Shown here: piece after piece, positions 6,981 through 30,703 of the stretch
Layout: each line of letters opens with the position of its first letter
Position numbering within the stretch: the stretch's first letter is position 1
Assembly: GCA_947073285.1 (NCBI GenBank)
Contig: CAMTJT010000006.1
Span: 46,972-78,971, forward strand
Direction of reading: 5' to 3'
Origin: an uncultured Clostridium sp.
GTDB taxonomy: Bacteria > Bacillota > Clostridia > TANB77 > CAG-508
DNA length: 32,000 nucleotides
Notes under the pieces: model-generated
Told to the model about the DNA's origin: nothing
The model's database searches: none
What the model saw: only the letters and a program-made list of their open reading frames with translations
Made by a program: the position numbers and the translations under genes

Positions 6981-7999
6981 ATGAAAAATATTAAATTAGC
7001 AATTGTTGGTGCAACAGGTCTTGTTGGTCAAACTATTTTAAAAGTATTAGAAGAAAAGAATTTACCAATTTTAGAATATGCTTTTTTTGCTTCTTCTCGT
7101 TCTGCACGGTAAAAAAATCACCTTTTTAGGAAAAGAATATATTATTCAAGAATTAACCACTTCTTCTTTTGATTCAAAATTTGATTTTGCTATTTTTTCT
7201 GCTGGTAGTAGTATTTCTAAAATATTTGCCCCTATAGCAGCTTCTTCTGGTTGCATTGTTATTGACAATAGTAGTTATTTTAGAATGAACCCAAGTGTTC
7301 CTTTAATTGTTCCAGAGGTGAATCCTGAAGAAATTCAAAATCACAATGGTATTATCGCAAACCCTAATTGTTCTACTATTCAGGCTGTATGTAGTTTAAA
7401 ACCTTTAGATACTGCCTACTCTATTAAAAGAATTGTATATAGCACTTATCAAGCTGTTTCAGGAGCTGGCTATAAAGGTGTACTTGATTTAGAAAGTGGC
7501 ATGGAAAGTTATATGTGTAGTGGTAAAATAAATACTAATTATGAATTACAAAAATTTCCGCTTCCTATTTTCAGTAATTGTTTGCCACATATTGATACAT
7601 TTACAGATAATGGCTATACCAAGGAAGAAGAAAAAATGATAAATGAAACTAGAAAAATTTTGAAAAAACCTTATTTAAAAATAACAGCAACCACTGTAAG
7701 AGTTCCTGTTCTTAATAGTCATAGTGAATCTATTAATGTAGAATTTGAAAAAGATTTTAATTTGAAAGAATTAAAACAAATTTTAGCAAATTCCTCTGGA
7801 ATTATAGTAAAAGATGATTTTGAAAACGAAATATATCCAACTACTTTAGATGCCTCTCGGTCAAGATGCTACTTTTGTAGGTAGAATTCGTAGGGATTTT
7901 AGTATAGCTTCTGGTGTTAACTTATGGGTAGTAGCTGATAATTTACGAAAAGGAGCTGCAAGTAATGCAGTACAAATTTTGGAGAAGCTAATTTTTTGA
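6981..7999 (+). pseudogene. asd: aspartate-semialdehyde dehydrogenase, reading frame broken twice by single-C insertions (7107 and 7858)
   Basis: GGAGG SD plus ATG at 6981 gives MKNIKLAIVGATGLVGQ...FASSRSA, then CGG TAA. Skipping C7107 continues as GKKITFLGKEY in the 268-aa ORF. Skipping C7858 continues as [14 protein letters not shown]...[23 protein letters not shown]. The three segments total 338 aa, a typical Asd length, and contain conserved Asd motifs. Confidence 0.85.
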
Positions 8000-8160
8000 G
8001 ATTTTAAGTTCACTTCTAATCCTTGATAAAAAGTTTCTCTATCTCTCATTAAGATAATAACATCAATTGATTTTTCTTCAAAAATTTCATATAAAATTTT
8101 TGAATTGGAAAAATTTACTCTCTATTTTGATGAAACTTATATTTATTTTTTGATGAAATT

Positions 8161-8188
8161 TTGCATTTCTTGAACTTTTTGCTATAAT
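8161..8188 (+). promoter_or_regulatory. promoter of the sufC/sufBD-like pair
   Basis: TTGCAT, 16-nt spacer, TGcTATAAT (extended -10). Confidence 0.5.
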
Positions 8189-8203
8189 ATGATACAATTG
8201 CAA

Positions 8204-8307
8204 CGAAAAATGTCGTAGCACACCTGTCCTCATTGCGACAAAAATGTCGTGGCATACCTGTCCCTCTGTGACAAAAATGTCACAACACGCCCGTCTCCAC
8301 TATGACA
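8204..8307 (+). repeat. three tandem 33-34-nt repeats, each with a GACA-AAAA-TGTC type palindrome (candidate operator array or leader hairpins)
   Basis: The aaaaatgtc(g/a)...cctgtcc...tg(c/t)gac unit recurs with TGTC at 8211, 8245 and 8278. The third unit holds the perfect palindrome TGTGACA-AAAA-TGTCACA at 8267-8284. Confidence 0.8.
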
Positions 8308-8321
8308 TTACAGGAGGTATT

Positions 8322-9048
8322 ATGTTAGAGTTAAAAGATATTTCTTTTTCAAGAGATAATAAGCAAATTTTGAATCATGTTAATTTAAAAATAGATCATA
8401 GCAAGTTAGTTGCCATAACTGGGCCAAATGGTTCTGGCAAGTCTACTCTTGCTAAAATTATTATGGGAATTTTAGCACCAGACACACGGTAAAATTTTCT
8501 TTTGTGGGCAAGATATTACTAATATGAGTATTACTGATAGAGCTAAACTTGGTATTGGTTTTGCTTTTCAACAACCAGTTAAATTTAAAGGTTTATCTGT
8601 AAAAGATTTAATTGAACTTTCTTCTGGAAATAAGCTAAAATTAAGTGAAGCTTGTAATTATTTATCTGATGTTGGTTTATGTGCCAAAGACTATTTGAAT
8701 AGAGAAATTAGTTCTTCTCTTTCTGGTGGTGAATTGAAACGTATTGAAATTGCTATGTTAGCAGCTAAAAAGTCTGCTCTTACTGTGTTTGATGAACCTG
8801 AAGCTGGTATTGATTTATGGAGTTTCAATAGTTTAATTGGTATTTTTGAAAAAATGCATCATGAAATTGAAAATTCTTCTATTGTTATTATTTCACACCA
8901 AGAAAAGATTTTAAATATTGCAGATGAAATCGTATTACTCTCTAATGGTGAAATTGAAAAAATAGGCTCTAAAGAAGAAGTATTACCTTTACTTTTAAAT
9001 TCTACCAATAAGCCTTGTAAAGTAATGTTGGACAAGACTAATATTTAG
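8322..9048 (+). pseudogene. SufC-like ABC ATPase, reading frame broken by a single-C insertion at 8487
   Basis: AGGAGG SD plus ATG at 8322 gives MLELKDISFSRDNKQILNHVNLKIDHSKLVAITGPNGSGKSTL (Walker A)...ILAPDT, then CGG TAA. Skipping C8487 gives GKILFCGQDITNMSITDRAKLGIGFAFQQP...LSGGELKRIEIA (ABC signature)...VFDEPEAGID (Walker B). Confidence 0.85.
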
Positions 9049-9119
9049 TTATGAAAAGTGCTTCATAACATATTTAAAAACAAAAACTCATAATCTAACC
9101 TTAGAAGGGAATAAAAATA

Positions 9120-10061
9120 ATGAATAATGAAATTGAAAATAAACTAGATAGTATAGAATTGAATTTACTAAAACAAATTGCGGATATTGAAAAAACGCCT
9201 ATGGGTGCTTATAATATTCGTGAAAATGGAAAAGGTATTTTACGAAATACTACTAGTAACATTGATATTATAACAAAAACAGACAAGTCTGGAATTGATA
9301 TTGTTATTAAACCAAATACCAAAAATGAAAGTGTACACATCCCTGTTATTTTAACACAAGGTGGTTTTAATGATGTGGTCTATAATGATTTTTATATTGG
9401 AGAAAATGCAGATGTGGTTATTGTAGCTGGTTGTGGTATTCATAATAACAGTTGTCAAACGGCTGAGCATGATGGTATTCACACTTTTCATTTAGAAAAA
9501 AATGCGAAAGTAAAATATATTGAAAAACATTATGGTGAAGGTACTGGTACAGGTAGCAAAATTTTAAATCCTCAAACCATTATCTATTTAGAAGATGGTA
9601 GTACTTTAGAAATGGAAACTGTTCAAATTGAAGGTGTTACTAAAACGATACGTGAAACTAAAGCTGAACTTGGTGCTAACACTAATTTAGTCATTACAGA
9701 AAGAATTATGACTGCAAAAGACCAAGTTGCTAAAACTATTTTTGATGTGAATTTAAATGGTGAAAATTCTAGTGTACATGTAGCCTCTCGCTCTATTGCC
9801 AAAGATACTTCTACGCAAGAATTTATTTCTAATGTAAATGGAAATAATAAATGTTTTGGCCATGTAGAATGTGACGCCATTATTATGGATAAAGCAAAAG
9901 TTATTTCTACTCCTAAAATTGTAGCAAATCATATTGATAGTAGTTTAGTTCATGAAGCTGCAATCGGCAAAATTGCAGGAGAACAATTAGTAAAATTAAT
10001 GACTCTTGGGCTTACTGAAAAAGAAGCTGAAGAGCAAATTATTAATGGATTTTTAAAATAA
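9120..10061 (+). CDS. SufB/SufD-family Fe-S cluster assembly scaffold protein (short form)
   Basis: 313 aa. The C-terminal ...SLVHEAAIGKIAGEQLVKLMTLGLTEKEAEEQIINGFL matches the SufB/SufD (UPF0051) C-terminal signature. Lies directly downstream of the SufC-like ATPase. Confidence 0.8.
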   Translation: MNNEIENKLDSIELNLLKQIADIEKTPMGAYNIRENGKGILRNTTSNIDIITKTDKSGIDIVIKPNTKNESVHIPVILTQGGFNDVVYNDFYIGENADVVIVAGCGIHNNSCQTAEHDGIHTFHLEKNAKVKYIEKHYGEGTGTGSKILNPQTIIYLEDGSTLEMETVQIEGVTKTIRETKAELGANTNLVITERIMTAKDQVAKTIFDVNLNGENSSVHVASRSIAKDTSTQEFISNVNGNNKCFGHVECDAIIMDKAKVISTPKIVANHIDSSLVHEAAIGKIAGEQLVKLMTLGLTEKEAEEQIINGFLK

Positions 10062-10136
10062 TTTATTTTCAATTTTATTTTTCTTCTATTATACTTAAAC
10101 TTGAACCTAAACTTACTTTTTAAAATAGAAACCTTT

Positions 10137-10177
10137 TTCCTCCTTTATGCATAAAATAAAAATGTATAAAGGAGGAA
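10137..10177 (+). promoter_or_regulatory. 16-bp hairpin whose 3' arm contains the dapA Shine-Dalgarno
   Basis: TTCCTCCTTTATGCAT, loop AAAATAAAA, ATGTATAAAGGAGGAA (15 of 16 positions complementary). The AAGGAGG SD lies in the 3' arm, 6 nt before the TTG start at 10184. Confidence 0.6.
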
Positions 10178-10183
10178 GTCATT

Positions 10184-11065
10184 TTGAAAAAAAATCTATT
10201 TATTGGTTCATGCACTGCCCTAATTACCCCTTTTACAGAAGATGGAATTTATTTTGAAGAACTTGCAAAATTAATTGAATTTCAAATTAGCGAAGGTACA
10301 GATGCTCTTATTATTTGTGGTACTACTGGCGAAAGCTCTACCATGACTTTAGAAGAGAAAAAACAAGTAATACAATATACAGTTCAAGTAGTTCATAAAA
10401 GAATTCCTGTTATCGCAGGAACTGGCAGTAATAACACTAAAGCTACTATTGAACTTTCTCAATATGCCCAAAGTGTTGGAGTAGATGGTATTTTACTTGT
10501 AACACCTTATTATAATAAAACTACACAAGCAGGTTTAGTTGCTCATTATAGTGAAATTGCAAAAAACGTTCAACTCCCTATTGTTTTATATAATGTTCCT
10601 AGTAGAACTGGTGTTAACATTTTACCTGAAACTTGTTTAGAGCTTTCTAAAATCTCTAATATTGTTGGTATTAAAGAAGCAAGTGGAGATATTTCACAAG
10701 TAGCTAAAATTGCTAATTTGTGCAATGATAATTTATGGATTTATTCTGGAAATGATGATCAAACCCTCCCTATTTTATCTTTAGGTGGCATTGGCGTTAT
10801 TTCTGTTCTTTCTAATATTGCTCCAAAGTTCGTACATAATATGGTATTTGACTATTTAAGTGGTAATCATACTTTAGCAAAAGACTCACAAATTAAAGCT
10901 ATTCCTTTAATTGATTGTTTATTTAGTGAAGTAAACCCTATTCCTGTTAAAACAGCTTTAAATTTGATGGGCTATGAGGTAGGAAATCCTCGTCTTCCTC
11001 TAATTCCAATGTCTTATGCTAAAAAAGAATTACTCCTTCAAGAAATGAAAAAGTTTAAACTTTGA
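10184..11065 (+). CDS. dapA: 4-hydroxy-tetrahydrodipicolinate synthase
   Basis: 293 aa: [14 protein letters not shown]...[15 protein letters not shown]...[10 protein letters not shown]...GIKEASGD, canonical DapA motifs. TTG start. Confidence 0.93.
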
Positions 11066-11220
11066 ACTAGATAATGATTTTGTTGGTTCAAGTATATATT
11101 TGTTAAACGATTAATTAATAGCAAAATTTCTTAATTTTTTCTTGAGATAGTTTTTTATTTGCTATTTATGTGATATAATGAAATTAGATTTTAAAATTAT
11201 TTTAAAGGGGATTTTGTTTT

Positions 11221-11781
11221 ATGCTAAATCTTATTACAAAAGAAACCTCACTTGCCAAAAGCTCTTATGCTGAATTTTTTTGCATTATTCAAGATTTAAT
11301 TAAAAATGCAACTGTGCAAGAAATGAGGAATTTTAATCAACATGCTGATACTTCTTGTTATAGACATTGTATGCAAGTAGCTTTTTATACCTATATTATT
11401 TGTAAAAAGCTACATTTAGATTATATATCTGCCACTCGTGGTGCTATGCTTCATGACTTATTTTTATATGACTGGCATAATCATGAAAGAACTGAAAAAA
11501 CTTTTCGTAGCCTACATGCTTTTGCACATCCTAAAATTGCTTTGCAAAATGCTACTAAAATTTTTGATTTAAATGAAATTGAACAAGATGTTATTTTAAA
11601 CCATATGTGGCCAGTCACTATTAGATTTCCACATTTTAAAGAAACGGTTGTGGTTACTTTTGCTGATAAATATAGTGCTACTAGAGAAACCTTTTTCCAT
11701 TTAAGAGATTTGTTACATACCAAAAAAGTATACAAATATGCTTATGTATTTTTAAGTTTAATTATTTTTAGAATTATTTAA
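11221..11781 (+). CDS. HD-domain phosphohydrolase-like protein
   Basis: 186 aa with H...HD motifs (YRHCMQVAF...GAMLHDLFLYDWH...LNHMWP). Hydrophobic C-terminus. Specific function unknown. Confidence 0.65.
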   Translation: MLNLITKETSLAKSSYAEFFCIIQDLIKNATVQEMRNFNQHADTSCYRHCMQVAFYTYIICKKLHLDYISATRGAMLHDLFLYDWHNHERTEKTFRSLHAFAHPKIALQNATKIFDLNEIEQDVILNHMWPVTIRFPHFKETVVVTFADKYSATRETFFHLRDLLHTKKVYKYAYVFLSLIIFRII

Positions 11782-11809
11782 TTGTGTCTTCATGTGAATA
11801 AATAAATTT

Positions 11810-11850
11810 TCTCCTCATATATATTTATAAATATATATGAGGAGATTTTT
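11810..11850 (+). terminator. perfect 15-bp hairpin plus T5: terminator after the HD gene that also sequesters the dapB SD
   Basis: TCTCCTCATATATAT, loop ttataa, ATATATATGAGGAGA (11810-11845), then TTTTT and the ATG at 11851. The GAGGAG SD of dapB is inside the 3' arm. Confidence 0.65.
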
Positions 11851-12597
11851 ATGATTAATTTATTGGTAAATGGTTGTTTAGGTAAAATGGGTACAGAGGT
11901 GATAAATTTAATAAAAACAAATCCTAATTTGCATTTATTAGGTGGTTTAGATAGACAAATATCACATAATCTTTTTTACCATGTTTATACAGATGTTAAT
12001 GACATTTTAGAAAAACCTGATGTTATTATTGATTTTTCTACTCCAAAAGCTAGTGTTACCCTTCTCCCTTACTGCCTAAAAAATAGTATTCCTATTGTAA
12101 TTGCTACTACTGGTTTTACTAAGGAACAACAAAATGAAATAAATACTGCAAGTCTTCAAATTCCTATTTTTCAGTCTAGTAATATGTCTTATCAAGTTGC
12201 TTTAATGGCAAAACTAGTTTCTGAGCTATCTACTAAACTAGAAACCCCAGAAATTGAGATTGTTGAAACACATCATTCGAAAAAACTAGATGCTCCAAGT
12301 GGTACTGCTTTATTATTAGCAAACAGTATCAATAAATCAAATGCTAATTGCTATAATTATGTGTTTAATAGGCATTCTAAAACTCAAAAGAGAGATTCTA
12401 AAGAAATTGGATTTTCTAGTATTCGTGGTGGTAATATTGTTGGAGAACATCAAGTATTATTTTTTAGTGAGCATGAAACAATAAAAGTAGAGCATACCGC
12501 TTACTCTAGAACTATTTTTGCAAAAGGTGCTGTTAAAGCTGCTTTATTTTTAATAAAGCAAAAAGCTGGATTATATACTATGGAAAATTTATTATAA
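11851..12597 (+). CDS. dapB: 4-hydroxy-tetrahydrodipicolinate reductase
   Basis: 248 aa: VNGCLGKMG...DFSTP...VIATTGF...IVETHHSKKLDAPSGTA...SIRGGNIVGEHQVLF, canonical DapB motifs. Confidence 0.92.
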   Translation: MINLLVNGCLGKMGTEVINLIKTNPNLHLLGGLDRQISHNLFYHVYTDVNDILEKPDVIIDFSTPKASVTLLPYCLKNSIPIVIATTGFTKEQQNEINTASLQIPIFQSSNMSYQVALMAKLVSELSTKLETPEIEIVETHHSKKLDAPSGTALLLANSINKSNANCYNYVFNRHSKTQKRDSKEIGFSSIRGGNIVGEHQVLFFSEHETIKVEHTAYSRTIFAKGAVKAALFLIKQKAGLYTMENLL

Positions 12598-12679
12598 TTA
12601 CTTTTAAAATTTAACTTAACTATCTTTAAAATTTTGACTTAAATAAATTCTTAACACCATATAAAGTTTAAACTAAAAA

Positions 12680-12718
12680 AGTTCTTAAAATATTAACCTT
12701 TTTAACATTTTAAGAACT
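12680..12718. terminator. bidirectional hairpin terminator between the convergent dapB and 1145-aa genes
   Basis: AGTTCTTAAAAT, 15-nt loop, ATTTTAAGAACT: a perfect 12-bp stem flanked by an A-run on the 5' side and a T-run on the 3' side. Confidence 0.6.
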
Positions 12719-12742
12719 TTTCTTGATTCTCATTTGCAATTT

Positions 12743-15700
12743 TTATCTTTGTACATCTGTTGATATTTGCAAATGGCGTGTTATTTCTGCAATAAATTCT
12801 TGTGCCTCTTGCCTTTTTTTACTATTTACAAAATTCCTTGCAAATCTCTCTATTTCTTCTTTCGCTATCATAAAATTATTATCCCAAAGTTCAGCATCCT
12901 CTTCTATAAATCCACCATCTTCTCCCCAGCCTCCTTGTTCTTCTTCCCAATCATTTTCCCAATCTTCCTCTTCCCATTGTTCTTCTAGGCCATCTCTTCC
13001 TTCTGGTAGTTCTAGGTTTGATAAATCTATATTAATTAATCTTTTCAATTCTTCTGGGTCTGTATAAAGTGCAACTGTTTTTTCATTACTACTTACTTTA
13101 GCAGTATTTTGTGCCTCTGGATCTTGATATAAAATAAATTGTGTTCTAGAATCAGCAATATATTCTACATCTTCTTCTGGTGCTCTATTTTCATCATCTA
13201 GTTTTAATCCTTTTAAACTAATATCTGAATAACCACTCCCTACTGTTACTTTTGTAAGCCTTTGACTACTTACAGTTTGCTCTATTCTAGCTTTTTGAAC
13301 TTCAAATTCCTGATCTGAAATTTCTCCATTTTCTTTTTGTTTCATAAGTTCTGAAAGTTTTGTTTTACTCCAATTTTCAAATTGCTCTTTGTCTACTTCT
13401 ATAAATTCTTGTGCTGCTCTTTGAATGGTATTTAATATTTCATTACTAACTAGTCTTTTATGATGATGATCTCTTTGAACTGTTTCTACATTATCCAAAC
13501 ATAAAACATTTTTATTTCTCCAAATCCAACTTTGTGATACTACTTTTCCATTTGTATCTCTTACAACTAATACCCTGCCATTTTGAGACATAATACTATG
13601 TAACATACAGCTTTCTCCAGCATTGTTCATAGCTTGACAACAATTTGTTAACTCTCCTACAAATATGGCAGCTGGGTCATCTAGCCTTAAGACTTGATAA
13701 GTATAGTTTTCTAAAGAAACATCTTCCCCAATCGCTGGAATGCTACTTTGAGTTCTTTTTAATTGCTCTTGATGCAACCTTACTGCTTGGTTAAACATAC
13801 TTTGGTCATAATTACAATTAACACTTAATTTAGCTATTTCTATATCTTGTGGTTGCACATTACTATATGTAATATTTGATAAATAAGCTGTACACATATC
13901 AAAAGTAATTTCTTGCCCTATAAATTCCTCTTGTATTTTTTCCCATTGATTTTGAATTTTAGCAAGCATCTTTTGTATGTCTTGCCTTTGTAATATAGTT
14001 TCTAAATTTTTAACAAAAAAATTATAAAAACCTGGTTTATAATGCATATCCATTCCATCAAATATAGCATGCATTTTATTTTTTGTCATAATATTAGAAA
14101 CACCTAACTCTCCATATAAATATCTTATCTCATCTGTCAAATCTTCTCTTGTTTTAGCATCTAGTGTTTGTAAATTTCTTGTTAATTGATATTGGCATTG
14201 TAAATCATATGCCTTTTTATAACCTTTTCTATATATATACTGTATAATTGCGCTTTCTCCTACTGCTATTTCTTCTGTTGCTATTTCTTGCTCATTATCT
14301 TCTACTTCTTTAAGAACTTCCTTCATCTGGTTAGGAGACATACTCTCTGGTAGATTCCACTCTAATAACTGTTTTCTTGCTACTTCTCTATCTCCTCCAA
14401 ACATTTTTAAGAATATAGGATCATTGTATAAACTATATAAACTCAATTCATATCGTAAACTCTCTGGTATCTTTTGTTCTGAAACTAATTCAAAATTTTC
14501 TTGCAATATGTCTTCCATAGCAAATCCACGACTATCTTGTATACTCTCTTCTATCTTTCTTGAACTTGCACTGATTTGTGTTGGAATATAAATAGCAAAT
14601 TTTTGAAGTAGGCTATACCTTCTTTTAGCATCTTCATCTGTTTCAAAAACTCCCATAACATGAATTGCCTCAATTAGTGCATTTTTTGCATCATCATCTT
14701 GACTATATATATTATGTTTTACTAATTCTGCCCATTTTTTCTTATCAAACTTTTCTATTTGGTCTTCTGGATATTTTAGCATCACTCTAAGTGGTGGTAT
14801 AAATCTTGCTACCTCCTGGAATTTTTTAGCTTTTTGAAACACTACTTCTATTTCGCTTAATGACACTGTTGATTGTTCATTATCATTTCTTTGTGCTACT
14901 GATTTATATCTATTATATAGACTTGTTACAATTCTTCCTAAAACTGGACCTTTTTTACTACTTTTAAAAGAACTAACTAATTCTCTTATTGCATCATTAT
15001 TTAATAAGTCTTCTGCAAATTTTGCCATAGAATATTCTACTTGATGAGCAGGTTCTTCAGTATAACCAAAAATCCTATCCATAGGGTCTTCTGGTCCTTG
15101 CAGTGTTAGTATTTTTTCTGGCTCTTGAATATCTTCTATTTCTAGTAATTTTAAAAGTAATATACCATGTTCATCTAGCCTTTTAATTAATAGGTCATCT
15201 TCTGAAAATTTTAAAAGTTCTTGTGCAGAATACTTTTCTACAAATTCGTTTCTTAGAAAATACCACCTAAAAGGAATACTATTAGGCATTTTATCCTTCC
15301 AATTATTCCAGTTTTCTACCATAGAACTATCTTTTAATAGACCTGCTCTATTTGCTTCTACTAATTGGTCATATACTTGCTCATCACTTTCTTCATGCAT
15401 CATTTTTAAAACCTCTTGTGGAAATTTAGCAGTTATTTCAAGATATTCTTCATATAATTTATCGATTTCTTCTCTCGTTACCTTTTCTCTTGTTTTTCCT
15501 GATGTCCAACGATAGCTATTTCCAAAAATTCTTTCTTGAAAATTTCTTGAAAATAACACTGCTAGTTTTTCTGGGCTATCTTTAAATAATGCCTCAAATT
15601 CTTCTATTGAAATTTTTTCATCATTTTCTTGTATAACACTTTGTATTTTATTACTTAATCTAAAAATTGTTTCTGCATCAAATAAACTCATAGCTGTATC

Positions 15701-29084: not shown

Positions 29085-29241
29085 TTTTTGTATGTTAGTT
29101 TTCTTACTAACATTTCCTCCTTCCCTTGTACTATAATTTGTAAATCTCTAATTTTGAGCATAAAAATAACGTCTAATCTTTTTTTGCCTTTCCTATTTTG
29201 TATTTTTTCAAAGACTACACATTATTTTAAGCATGTTAACT

Positions 29242-29269
29242 ATTATATCACTTAACTATAAAAAAGCAA
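29242..29269 (-). promoter_or_regulatory. candidate promoter of the MATE gene
   Basis: Minus strand reads TTGCTT, 16-nt spacer, TGaTATAAT (extended -10). Confidence 0.45.
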
Positions 29270-29426
29270 GTGATATTTCTTAATAAACAAATTTTCCGTT
29301 TGTATTTTTCTAATTTTTATTATCCATTACTATTTTATTGAACATAATAATTTCTCCTTTTTGCATACTAATATATATATTATACTATAAAATCAAAGTA
29401 TTAATAATTCCAATATTTTCATTTCA

Positions 29427-29462
29427 TTATCTGTGCAATTTTCTGTGAAGTTATCTGTGCAA
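29427..29462. repeat. three tandem 12-nt units TTWTCTGTGMAR
   Basis: ttatctgtgcaa / ttttctgtgaag / ttatctgtgcaa. The outer two units are identical. Confidence 0.7.
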
Positions 29463-29560
29463 CTACCTTTTGTTTTTTCTATAGGAAATCTGCTACCATT
29501 AAATTTTAACACAATAATATCTTTTTTTGAATACTACTAGCCAAATTTGCTGTAAATTAT

Positions 29561-29589
29561 TTGACAGAACCAAAAAAATGTGCTATTAT
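29561..29589 (+). promoter_or_regulatory. near-consensus orphan promoter driving the sRNA candidate
   Basis: TTGACA, 17-nt spacer ending in TGc, TATTAT. Confidence 0.6.
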
Positions 29590-29595
29590 ATAGTT

Positions 29596-29670
29596 ACATT
29601 AAACAATGTACTCTCGTTCGGGTTGTGTATATTGTTTGCGTATGTGTACCTCAATACACATACTTTTTTT
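29596..29670 (+). ncRNA. candidate ~75-nt small RNA bounded by a promoter and a terminator
   Basis: Begins about 7 nt after the -10 box and ends at GTATGTGTA, loop CCTCAA, TACACATAC, T7 (29640-29670). No SD-preceded ORF inside. Contains GUUCGGGUUGUGU (29616-29628), complementary to the start of the convergent 36-aa ORF. Confidence 0.5.
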
Positions 29671-29739
29671 ATGCCTAAAAATAAAAGAATAGGAGAGTAC
29701 CCTCAAATACTCTCTCATTCCGACTATGTATGGCACATT

Positions 29740-29850
29740 TTAGTCTTTACTCTTTTTTTGTTCTTCTAATTTTGATTGAAATTTGTTGCTTTTGTCTTTT
29801 TCAGCTAAAAGCATTTCAACCAGTTTTAGAATAAGTTCGGGTTGTGTCAT
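29740..29850 (-). CDS. 36-aa peptide MTQPELILKLVEMLLAEKDKSNKFQSKLEEQKKSKD
   Basis: ATG at 29850 preceded by AAAGGGGGG. Candidate promoter TTGAAT-17-TAATAT at 29915-29943. Terminator GAGAGTA/TACTCTC plus a T-run at 29677-29714. The 67-aa version in the track has no SD. Confidence 0.45.
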   Translation of the reverse strand: MTQPELILKLVEMLLAEKDKSNKFQSKLEEQKKSKD

Positions 29851-29960
29851 CTTGTTTCCCCCCTTTCCGTCTTTATGTAAAAGACCTGCCTTTTGACATT
29901 GAAAGGTTGGTAATATATTATAATATTCTTCTATATTATTCAAGCGAACAAAGTAAAGTT

Positions 29961-30162
29961 TTACAACTTCTTGTCAACATATTTATTTTCAATTTTGTAT
30001 TCAATATCGTAGTGAAATTCATAATGGTTATAAATATATGTTGTTGTTTCTTTTTCATTACACCATTTTACTAACTGTACTAATCCAACAACAATACTTA
30101 CAATACTTGCTATTATTCCTATTATTATTCCTATTTTTTGAACTTTTTTATTCCTTCGACAT
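29961..30162 (-). pseudogene. small membrane protein ORF out of frame with its own SD and ATG
   Basis: AGGAGGAGG then ATG at 30162 reads MSKE*. The +1 frame reads (C)RRNKKVQKIGIIIGIIASIVSIVVGLVQLVKWCNEKETTTYIYNHYEFHYDIEYKIENKYVDKKL* and has no ATG, GTG or TTG start of its own. Confidence 0.4.
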
Positions 30163-30407
30163 ACCTCCTCCTATTTTAATTTTTGTAATTATTAAAATAG
30201 GTCTTATTAGGTTGTATCATAATATGTGTACCTTCAAATTACCTCCTTAATATTGTTTAGCAATAATGCTTTTTGACTGCTAAAATGATACCCTACTTTC
30301 TATACTTTGTCAAATAGAAAAACAAGTTGTATTTCAACCGTTTTCTTATTGTTGTGCATAAAATGAACCCACCTTGAAAATAAGTAAAAGTTCTTTTATG
30401 ACCGTCT

Positions 30408-30483
30408 TGGTTGGGGTACTAGGATTCGAACCTAGGAAATGCCTGAGTCAGAGTCAGGTGCCTTACCGCTTGGCTATACCCCA
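30408..30483 (-). tRNA. tRNA-Gln (anticodon CUG), CCA encoded
   Basis: Minus strand reads TGGGGTA TA GCCAAGCGGTAAGGC A CCTGA CTCTGAC TCAGG CATTTC CTAGG TTCGAAT CCTAG TACCCCA A CCA. Cloverleaf folded by eye. The D-arm is typical of Gln tRNAs. Confidence 0.85.
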
Positions 30484-30550: not shown

Positions 30551-30573
30551 GCTTGGCTATACCCCAATATAAA
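30551..30573 (-). repeat. 23-nt perfect duplicate of the tRNA-Gln 5' end plus 7 upstream nt
   Basis: gcttggctataccccaatataaa occurs at 30468-30490 and again at 30551-30573 (83-nt offset). Confidence 0.9.
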
Positions 30574-30703
30574 ATTACTACATATCCCATATTATTGCAT
30601 ATTTTTTTACAAATTGCTACTATTTTTTGAAAATTTTTTATTGATTTTGCTTTTTTCTTAATATATACTTAAGTTATCATAAAAAAATAATGGAGGTTTA
30701 CTT

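Follow-up and report, generated by a model that had tools for sequence, protein, structure and literature searches.

A convergent sRNA/peptide gene pair of uncultured gut Clostridia with par-like RNA contacts predicted at two covarying sites

INTRODUCTION

How does a small RNA (sRNA) recognize the mRNA of a short open reading frame (ORF) that is transcribed towards it from the opposite strand, and what does the encoded peptide do? The question is raised by a ~390-bp convergent gene pair in an uncultured gut Clostridia bacterium, which lies in a stretch of 32,000 nucleotides (the window; contig CAMTJT010000006.1, positions 46,972 to 78,971) of a draft genome of 1.86 Mb with 28.6% G+C. The original prediction, made from the window alone, had described an sRNA gene facing a 36-aa ORF and had likened the layout to the par (Fst/RNA II) type I toxin-antitoxin locus of Enterococcus faecalis plasmid pAD1. 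By comparing the pair with its paralogs and with modules of other genomes, we arrive at the following probable reading: a self-contained, RNA-controlled small-protein module that works like par and whose peptide is most likely a toxin.

RESULTS

Layout of the gene pair

Every element that had been described was located in the window. A near-consensus plus-strand promoter and an intrinsic terminator would bound an RNA of ~75 nt, and a converging minus-strand unit has its own promoter, Shine-Dalgarno (SD) sequence, ORF and terminator. The features of the pair are listed below, first those of the sRNA and then those of the peptide mRNA.

29561-29589, plus strand: sRNA promoter, with -35 TTGACA at 29561-29566, a 17-nt spacer and the extended -10 TGcTATTAT, its -10 hexamer at 29584-29589
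29596-29670, plus strand: predicted antisense sRNA of ~75 nt with hairpins SL1 and SL2, its ends placed from promoter and terminator
29600-29638, plus strand: SL1 hairpin (RNAfold), stem 29600-29611 with 29627-29638, recognition box in the apical loop and 3' arm
29616-29628, plus strand: box 1, sRNA copy GUUCGGGUUGUGU, complementary to ORF codons 2-5 plus 1 nt and covarying with the ORF copy
29632-29637, plus strand: box 2, sRNA copy UUGUUU, predicted to pair with AAACAA between SD and AUG
29640-29670, plus strand: sRNA intrinsic terminator SL2, a hairpin (29640-29663) with a 9-bp stem and loop CCUCAA (29649-29654), then U7; proposed kissing site
29915-29949, minus strand: mRNA promoter, with -35 TTGAAT at 29943 to 29938, a 17-nt spacer and -10 TAATAT at 29920 to 29915
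29684-29908, minus strand: predicted peptide mRNA of ~225 nt, its ends placed from promoter and terminator
29901-29908, minus strand: mRNA 5' end AACCUUUC, whose CCUUUC (29906 to 29901) is a predicted anti-SD pairing with GAAAGG of the SD
29852-29868, minus strand: translation initiation region (TIR), with SD GGAAAGGGGGG at 29868 to 29858 and spacer AAACAA at 29857 to 29852, the box 2 target
29835-29847, minus strand: box 1, mRNA copy ACACAACCCGAAC, codons 2-5 plus 1 nt
29740-29850 including the stop codon, minus strand: 36-aa ORF MTQPELILKLVEMLLAEKDKSNKFQSKLEEQKKSKD, ATG at 29850, a predicted hydrophilic single alpha-helix
29693-29714, minus strand: mRNA intrinsic terminator with loop UUGAGG (plus strand CCTCAA, 29701-29706), complementary to the sRNA terminator loop

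The sRNA promoter matches 11/12 consensus positions and carries the TG of an extended -10; it is kept in the paralogs and, by regular-expression match, in 56/65 modules. The mRNA promoter is conserved across ~100 leaders and has the weaker -35, and the mRNA probably starts at about 29908, at AACCUUUC, downstream of TTGAAT-17-TAATAT. Such strengths, a near-consensus promoter with an extended -10 facing one with a weak -35, would fit an excess of sRNA. The predicted transcripts do not overlap. Their 3' ends lie ~12 nt apart, close to the gap first estimated, and the two terminator hairpins (29640-29663 on the plus strand, 29714 to 29693 on the minus strand) are 29 nt apart and have unrelated stems. 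The view that the sRNA lacks plausible coding potential also held, as no conserved ORF was found within it and its ATG at 29606 is absent from the paralog C8a. No Rfam family was matched at the gathering threshold or at E<=10.

Covariation of the start-codon pairing

The 13-mer GTTCGGGTTGTGT, which had been reported as a direct repeat, occurs exactly twice in the window, at 29616-29628 and 29835-29847. Shuffled sequences contained 0.13 matches on average when as many as 2 mismatches were tolerated. Through this repeat the sRNA is complementary to codons 2-5 of the ORF, as had been claimed, and the predicted pairing reaches further: to the 13 bp are added 6 bp (UUGUUU/AAACAA), the AUG being left in a small internal loop. 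This duplex is predicted at -29.6 to -35 kcal/mol. Pairing in two blocks is also found in other subfamilies, for example in locus L008 (15+7 nt).

The source genome holds five paralogous modules: that of the window, C12, the two copies C8a and C8b on contig C8, and a divergent copy on C2. In an alignment of the first four, C12 has GCTCTGGTTGTGT at both box sites where the window has GTTCGGGTTGTGT at both. The two differ by two synonymous codon changes (CCC to CCA and GAA to GAG), each of which is mirrored in the C12 sRNA. C8a carries GTTCGGAAT at both sites and C8b carries GTTCTGCG at both; their boxes comprise 9 and 8 contiguous matching positions, respectively, and are quite different in sequence from the box of the window.

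A scan for the sRNA terminator motif covered 185,579 species genomes, and an sRNA-anchored module set was drawn from among the matches listed. It contained at least 124 sRNA-like units, at least 65 of them unique and followed by a convergent small ORF 140-200 nt downstream. Across these 65 modules, duplexes between an sRNA and its cognate TIR averaged -31.4 kcal/mol, against -15.4 for non-cognate and -14.3 for shuffled pairs; these energies ignore accessibility, and related genomes are not independent samples. The cognate target ranked first of 65 in 42 cases, and the remainder were mostly near-identical relatives.

Because the sRNA pattern could bias the module set, we also made a search with a profile of the peptide only. 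Six-frame translations of 401 genomes of the order were searched, 60 matches were fetched and 54 ORFs were defined. TIR copies of 9 nt or longer were located 85-120 nt beyond the stop codon in 48 of the 54 modules and in 1/54 for a control region of equal size. In the remaining 6/54 an sRNA is present and the pairing is interrupted (-25 to -41 kcal/mol). The family thus sampled is diverse, with 94 distinct peptides encoded by 103 unique coding sequences and with 60 different 13-mers at +4..+16. The two box copies covary in the four further paralogs of the source genome and in ~100 modules elsewhere. In silico duplex prediction and a search for covariation in related genomes had both been suggested as checks on the original prediction, and both speak in its favor.

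A second contact at the terminator loops

The terminator loops of the sRNA and the mRNA both read CCTCAA on the plus strand (29649-29654 and 29701-29706). Since the two RNAs are convergent, the same plus-strand sequence makes their loops complementary to each other (CCUCAA/UUGAGG). The paralogs share other loop sequences, namely ACTGCAAT, CCGTAAA, ACTGCAACT and, in the divergent C2 copy, GTGGTAG. Among the 65 sRNA-anchored modules, the shared loop string of cognate pairs averages 7.7 nt and reaches at least 7 nt in 77% of cognate versus 10% of non-cognate pairs; 35 distinct strings were counted. Among the peptide-anchored modules, the stem of the sRNA terminator varies, its changes being compensatory, and each loop still matches that of its partner. 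This covariation supports loop-loop kissing as a probable second contact, beyond the start-codon duplex. When all five modules of the source genome were compared in 5x5 matrices, the cognate pair was best at both the box and the loop site, and the five would therefore be mutually insulated.

The window loop UUUGAGGG contains UUGA, a match to the motif YUNR. This motif is present in the family loops UUCACGG and UUCGCAG and absent from GUUGCA, GUUACAG and GUUGUG; it is not universal among par homologs either (PMC7472228). The sRNA terminator stem GUAUGUGUA/UACACAUAC was found in only 28/54 peptide-anchored modules, the others having compensated variants. Its apparent invariance was accordingly dropped as, in part, an artefact of the search pattern. 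We likewise dropped a third contact, between the conserved motif CAUACAUAGUCG in the mRNA 3' untranslated region (UTR) and an arm of the sRNA terminator, which gave only 5 bp by hand alignment.

Repeats of this kind could act as DNA, serving as sites for protein binding, recombination or replication slippage, or could be there by chance, without any RNA pairing. They are direct repeats on one strand, and a GTTCGC motif and 12-nt repeats hint at protein-binding DNA elements nearby. Nevertheless, we consider such an explanation highly improbable. Two independent repeat pairs change in step (60 boxes, 35 loop strings), and their positions coincide exactly with an sRNA loop, the start codon and the tips of the hairpins. 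All five copies in the source genome differ, which is more than one DNA-binding protein could follow, and the shuffled expectation for the 13-mer argues against chance. By comparison across modules, we are confident that sRNA-mRNA base-pairing is under selection at two sites and that the gene pair would be controlled at the RNA level.

Folding of the two RNAs

A hairpin equivalent to SL1 is predicted in every family member, with ~60% of the box nucleotides unpaired in the minimum free energy (MFE) structure. It was folded one sequence at a time, because the variable box region misaligns and SL1 is consequently missing from the consensus fold, which for 30 sRNAs aligned with MAFFT and folded with RNAalifold consists of the terminator only. 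In one locus (L075, 3613-3796, minus strand) two tandem sRNA genes, separated by ~180 nt, lie upstream of just one peptide ORF, and only the proximal gene matches the start region of that ORF.

On the mRNA side, the SD sequence GGAAAGG(G/A)GG is kept throughout all modules. MFE and partition function calculations place it in a helix with the 5' end of the same mRNA (CCUUUC:GAAAGG) and give the SD a probability of being unpaired of 0.13 in the window, the mean for the family being 0.27. The SD is thus predicted to be sequestered by the mRNA's own 5' end; a covariation test does not apply to this helix, because both of its strands are invariant. A search of the source genome for the same leader in front of hydrophobic peptides found none, only the hydrophilic family.

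Two further observations concern the leader. The motif GTTCGC (29949 to 29944, minus strand) stands immediately upstream of the mRNA -35 and is conserved in ~100 otherwise divergent leaders; a role as a regulator site or UP-like element is possible. A promoter-like site, TTGACA-17-TATTAT, runs antisense inside the mRNA leader and promoter (29893-29921, plus strand). We rejected it as a real promoter, as it overlaps the leader hairpin and the AT-rich -10, is missing in C8b and has no terminator. The leader hairpin loop UGUCAA together with the AT-rich -10 probably gives rise to it incidentally.

A coding ORF for a soluble helical peptide

Peptides of the family are 29-46 aa long and share the consensus M-[TN]-x-x-[DE]-L-I-L-x-L-V-[ED]-x-L-L-A-E-[KR]-[ED]-K-N, followed by a tail rich in Gln, Lys and Glu. 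The ratio of nonsynonymous to synonymous substitution rates (dN/dS) is ~0.36-0.42 along the entire ORF, including the part outside the pairing box. This indicates purifying selection, and the ORF is therefore a real coding gene. An SD and a start codon (ATG, TTG or GTG) are kept in ~100 modules, and the reading frame is kept across the 94 distinct peptides.

Could the ORF nevertheless remain untranslated, the locus consisting of two non-coding RNAs that interact, or of an sRNA and an RNA sponge or decoy? It is a very small ORF, which gene callers frequently overlook or start at the wrong place, many of the relatives having odd lengths. However, a strong SD at the right spacing precedes the start codon, the frame has survived the divergence of the peptides, and the constraint on codons reaches beyond the pairing box. 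Moreover, the box changes are synonymous and the translation start lies at the centre of the pairing site. We regard an untranslated ORF as very unlikely.

The window peptide has a grand average of hydropathy (GRAVY) of -0.96 and no transmembrane (TM) segment; hydrophilicity and the lack of such a segment are shared by all 94 distinct peptides. AlphaFold2 predicts one continuous helix over residues 3-35 (predicted local distance difference test score, pLDDT, 92.7), along which I7, L10 and L14, and then N21, L24 and L28, form an a/d-like stripe. A search of 1.84 billion cluster representatives retrieved 243 relatives at E<=1e-3; eight of the clusters were looked up and none was named. Likenesses to a SinI-type antirepressor helix, to the N-terminus of HU, to the 'LILKL' motif of TisB and to the tail of Fst were considered and set aside, none giving a profile match.

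Distribution and one-sided loss

The peptide was found in 109/401 genomes of the order, with 106/275 in the family of the window and 2/33 in one other family; the six-frame profile search found none in the other three families. Carrier genomes have 1-6 copies. Among the matches listed for the sRNA terminator motif, almost all are metagenome-assembled genomes of uncultured Clostridia from human, chicken, rabbit and ruminant guts, and 'Clostridium sp. CAG:354' is among the motif-carrying genomes listed.

Loss of the two genes is one-sided. A cognate sRNA accompanies 54/54 peptide ORFs, and an ORF without sRNA was seen in 0/54, while ~30 genuine sRNA genes have no peptide ORF within the fetched stretch of 8 kb or less. 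Some of these orphan loci retain the mRNA terminator together with the 3' UTR, beyond which the module breaks off, and in locus L011 the ORF is truncated to its C-terminal half. An ORF that is never without its sRNA, together with an sRNA that is often without its ORF, is expected if the unrepressed peptide is harmful. As a separate observation, the orphan sRNA genes in loci L007, L042 and L057 lie directly beside tRNA genes, on the opposite strand.

Toxin or regulator

We read the peptide as a toxin because its module has an accessory distribution, is multi-copy, insulated and indel-borne, and is lost one-sidedly. Small soluble bacterial proteins are often protein-binding regulators, and in the main alternative the same RNA circuit would serve a non-toxic regulator or adaptor, perhaps one that binds a cellular protein as a coiled coil, a TA-like (toxin-antitoxin-like) layout having been repurposed. 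A soluble single helix with an a/d-like stripe, under purifying selection and free of membrane segments, would suit such a role, as would a module that is not enriched on mobile elements. On the other hand, a housekeeping gene is expected to be single-copy and syntenic, whereas this module is accessory (39% of the genomes of its family), comes in 1-6 insulated copies and sits in indels. The one-sided loss, with sRNAs beside all 54 ORFs and many sRNAs without an ORF, and what would be a triple layer of repression (a strong promoter for the sRNA, masking of the SD and pairing at two sites) also speak against a regulator, which we judge to be rather unlikely.

Several results weigh against a toxin, or against a module that behaves as type I toxin-antitoxin (TA) loci usually do. 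The peptides are strongly hydrophilic, with GRAVY values of -0.4 to -1.3 across the family, and in none of the 55 peptides scored does a 19-residue window exceed a hydropathy of 0.66, a value far below that of a membrane helix. The reservation voiced at the outset, that this is not a clear TM toxin, was thus well placed, and membrane insertion like that of TisB or Fst is excluded by hydropathy. Amphipathicity is only moderate (hydrophobic moment 0.3-0.5, mean hydrophobicity near 0), which likewise gives no support to a membrane-surface peptide like the phenol-soluble modulins. Searches of Pfam, NCBIfam, PHROGs, PADLOC and a PDB sequence profile found no homology to a toxin, defence or phage family. 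With few exceptions, the type I toxins known so far are hydrophobic peptides of the membrane, and the only cytosolic ones named, RalR and SymE, are enzymes (PMC8309996). The module was absent from the 50,697 phage records, 72,556 plasmids and IMG/VR contigs searched, and a tyrosine recombinase lies within 8 kb in 5/56 loci, about the background of 14 per 1.86 Mb. Finally, the masking of the SD rests on invariant sequences and hence lacks support from covariation.

Since the peptide is hydrophilic and has neither a TM segment nor a known family, its toxicity is something that we infer, and whether it is a true toxin seems to us an evenly balanced question. The toxin reading is nonetheless the one carried through the model below.

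Genomic surroundings

The module lies within a variable segment of the window:

29233-30400: variable segment of ~1.17 kb flanked by a MATE pump gene and by the 3' end of tRNA-Gln, holding the module, 12-nt repeats and a TM-peptide unit

This site is a hot spot for cargo. It is empty in the congener G242 (L207, G242:C19), where the flanks are ~37 bp apart, and it holds 1.17 kb in the window, 2.5 kb in genome G002 and 1.25 kb in genome G226, with unrelated genes (loci L205, L210 and L207 compared). The gene for tRNA-Gln(CUG) is on the minus strand at 30408-30483, and a 32-nt copy of its 5' part, 94% identical, follows 83 nt further on (30551-30582). As this duplication is also present in G242 and G226, it predates the differences in cargo.

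Two perfect copies of TTATCTGTGCAA, 24 nt apart, occupy 29427-29462 within the variable segment, just upstream of the sRNA promoter. On the other side is a minus-strand unit at 29961-30313, with a promoter (TTGACA-17-TATCAT, 30313 to 30285) and a strong SD (AGGAGG), then an ATG that opens only MSKE*. The +1 frame of this unit would encode a single-TM peptide of ~66 codons (containing KIGIIIGIIASIVSIVVGLVQLV) that lacks a start codon of its own. Read-through from the unit into the module is possible, because no terminator precedes the promoter of the 36-aa ORF. The unit lies outside the conserved module, since similarity between paralogs stops at the mRNA promoter.

Elsewhere in the source genome, C8a and C8b bracket ~5 kb (L202, G000:C8:4000-23999, 7600-13130). 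This stretch contains a C-terminal fragment of a tyrosine recombinase, an ATPase-like gene of ~394 aa and three unknown ORFs, and is followed by an intact integrase and spo0A; it looks like a small integrated island bounded by modules. A general link of the module to integrases was dropped, as recombinases are not enriched near the 56 loci.

DISCUSSION

A working model

The model that we propose for the module is as follows. A strong constitutive promoter would drive the ~75-nt two-hairpin sRNA, and a weaker convergent promoter the ~225-nt mRNA for the 36-aa soluble helical peptide, the two transcripts not overlapping. Before any contact with the sRNA, the CCUUUC at the 5' end of the mRNA would mask the SD. 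The first contact between the RNAs would be a kiss between CCUCAA and UUGAGG in their terminator loops. SL1, through its loop and 3' arm, would next form 6 + 13 bp with the stretch of mRNA that runs from the SD-AUG spacer to codon 5. This duplex would block ribosome binding and probably create a substrate for a double-strand RNase. With box and loop sequences of its own, each paralog would be insulated from the others. Without its sRNA the peptide is most likely harmful, as a toxin that would act in the cytoplasm and does not span the membrane.

Beyond this model, we put forward a more tentative possibility: the peptides may represent a class of type I toxins without precedent, small, soluble and non-enzymatic. 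They would be coiled-coil-like helices of 29-46 residues that poison an essential cytoplasmic target through binding, are kept in check by a two-terminator par-like circuit with matching loops and diversify into insulated copies inside one genome. If the peptide is toxic, the definition of a type I toxin widens, and an unknown cytoplasmic target is to be sought in a large group of uncultured gut Clostridia.

The RNAs are of use under any role of the peptide. The ~100 diverse modules, in which loop kiss and start-codon duplex are kept matched, form a natural test set for RNA-RNA recognition, and up to six insulated pairs per genome offer ready-made orthogonal regulator/target pairs. With the module one can also examine cleanly how loop kissing and linear pairing act together without the tether of a shared terminator. 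In public data the family is unannotated, without names and without a Rfam or Pfam entry.

Comparison with known systems

The literature searched held no description of this module family or of a soluble helical type I toxin. The enterobacterial pairs tisB/istR-1, zorO/orzO and shoB/ohsC resemble it in several ways: the sRNA gene adjoins the toxin gene without overlap, ~18-20 nt of complementarity in the 5' region control translation, and the primary mRNA is inert by its own fold. They differ in being transcribed divergently, in pairing within the 5' UTR or at a ribosome standby site, in having no terminator-loop contact and in encoding hydrophobic membrane peptides.

The type I TA systems of Clostridioides difficile, such as CD2517.1-RCd8, share with the module their presence in Clostridia, multiple copies, Lys-rich charged tails and a location in variable regions (PMC5961336, PMC7699646). 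Their antitoxins, however, are cis-antisense RNAs that overlap the toxin mRNAs, and their toxins have an N-terminal hydrophobic TM domain. [quoted passage not shown]

RalR and SymE, both enzymes, are the only cytosolic type I toxins named, and they provide a precedent for a target other than the membrane (PMC8309996). RalR (~64 aa, a DNase) and SymE (~113 aa, RNA-cleaving) have recognisable folds, unlike the single helix of 29-46 aa encoded here. Searches of Pfam and NCBIfam and a PDB match revealed no homology of the module peptide to RalR or to the AbrB-like fold of SymE.

The closest likeness is to par, known from pAD1 of E. faecalis and from chromosomal par-like loci of Firmicutes. In pAD1 par the convergent RNAs kiss first at their terminator loops, the SD having been masked up to that point by a 5' stem-loop, and co-resident systems have different interaction sites (PMC7472228). 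The differences can be listed briefly. The module has two separate terminators of which only the loops are complementary, in place of the one shared bidirectional terminator of par; its sRNA is ~75 nt long with a 5' hairpin of its own, against ~40 nt for that of par; and it was not found on plasmids or phages in the collections searched. Its peptide shares only a charged tail with the Fst/Ldr toxin signature and has no Pfam or NCBIfam match. Because it is hydrophilic throughout and lacks the hydrophobic TM helix, the PXXXG motif and the conserved Trp, it is not a member of Fst/Ldr, and the label of an Fst-family member is not supported.

That the module works like par, in contrast, is supported. 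Both systems have convergent promoters and combine an sRNA partner with an mRNA of ~230 nt (here ~225 nt) for a peptide of ~30-40 aa (here 36 aa) (PMC7472228). In both, direct DNA repeats read both ways produce complementarity over the translation initiation region, here as 13 + 6 nt flanking the AUG, and a second contact is made at complementary terminator loops, for which the module offers covariation and in which the order of contacts would follow that of par. Sequestration of the SD within the mRNA, as in par, is predicted for the module (probability of being unpaired 0.13, invariant strands). Interaction sites that are poorly conserved between paralogs, and would insulate co-resident systems, are common to the two. 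The original prediction had proposed an interaction of par type through direct repeats at the translation start. The extensive covariation of the boxes bears this out, and the resemblance is closer than was first seen, because the terminator loops are also complementary and covarying and the SD is predicted to be sequestered.

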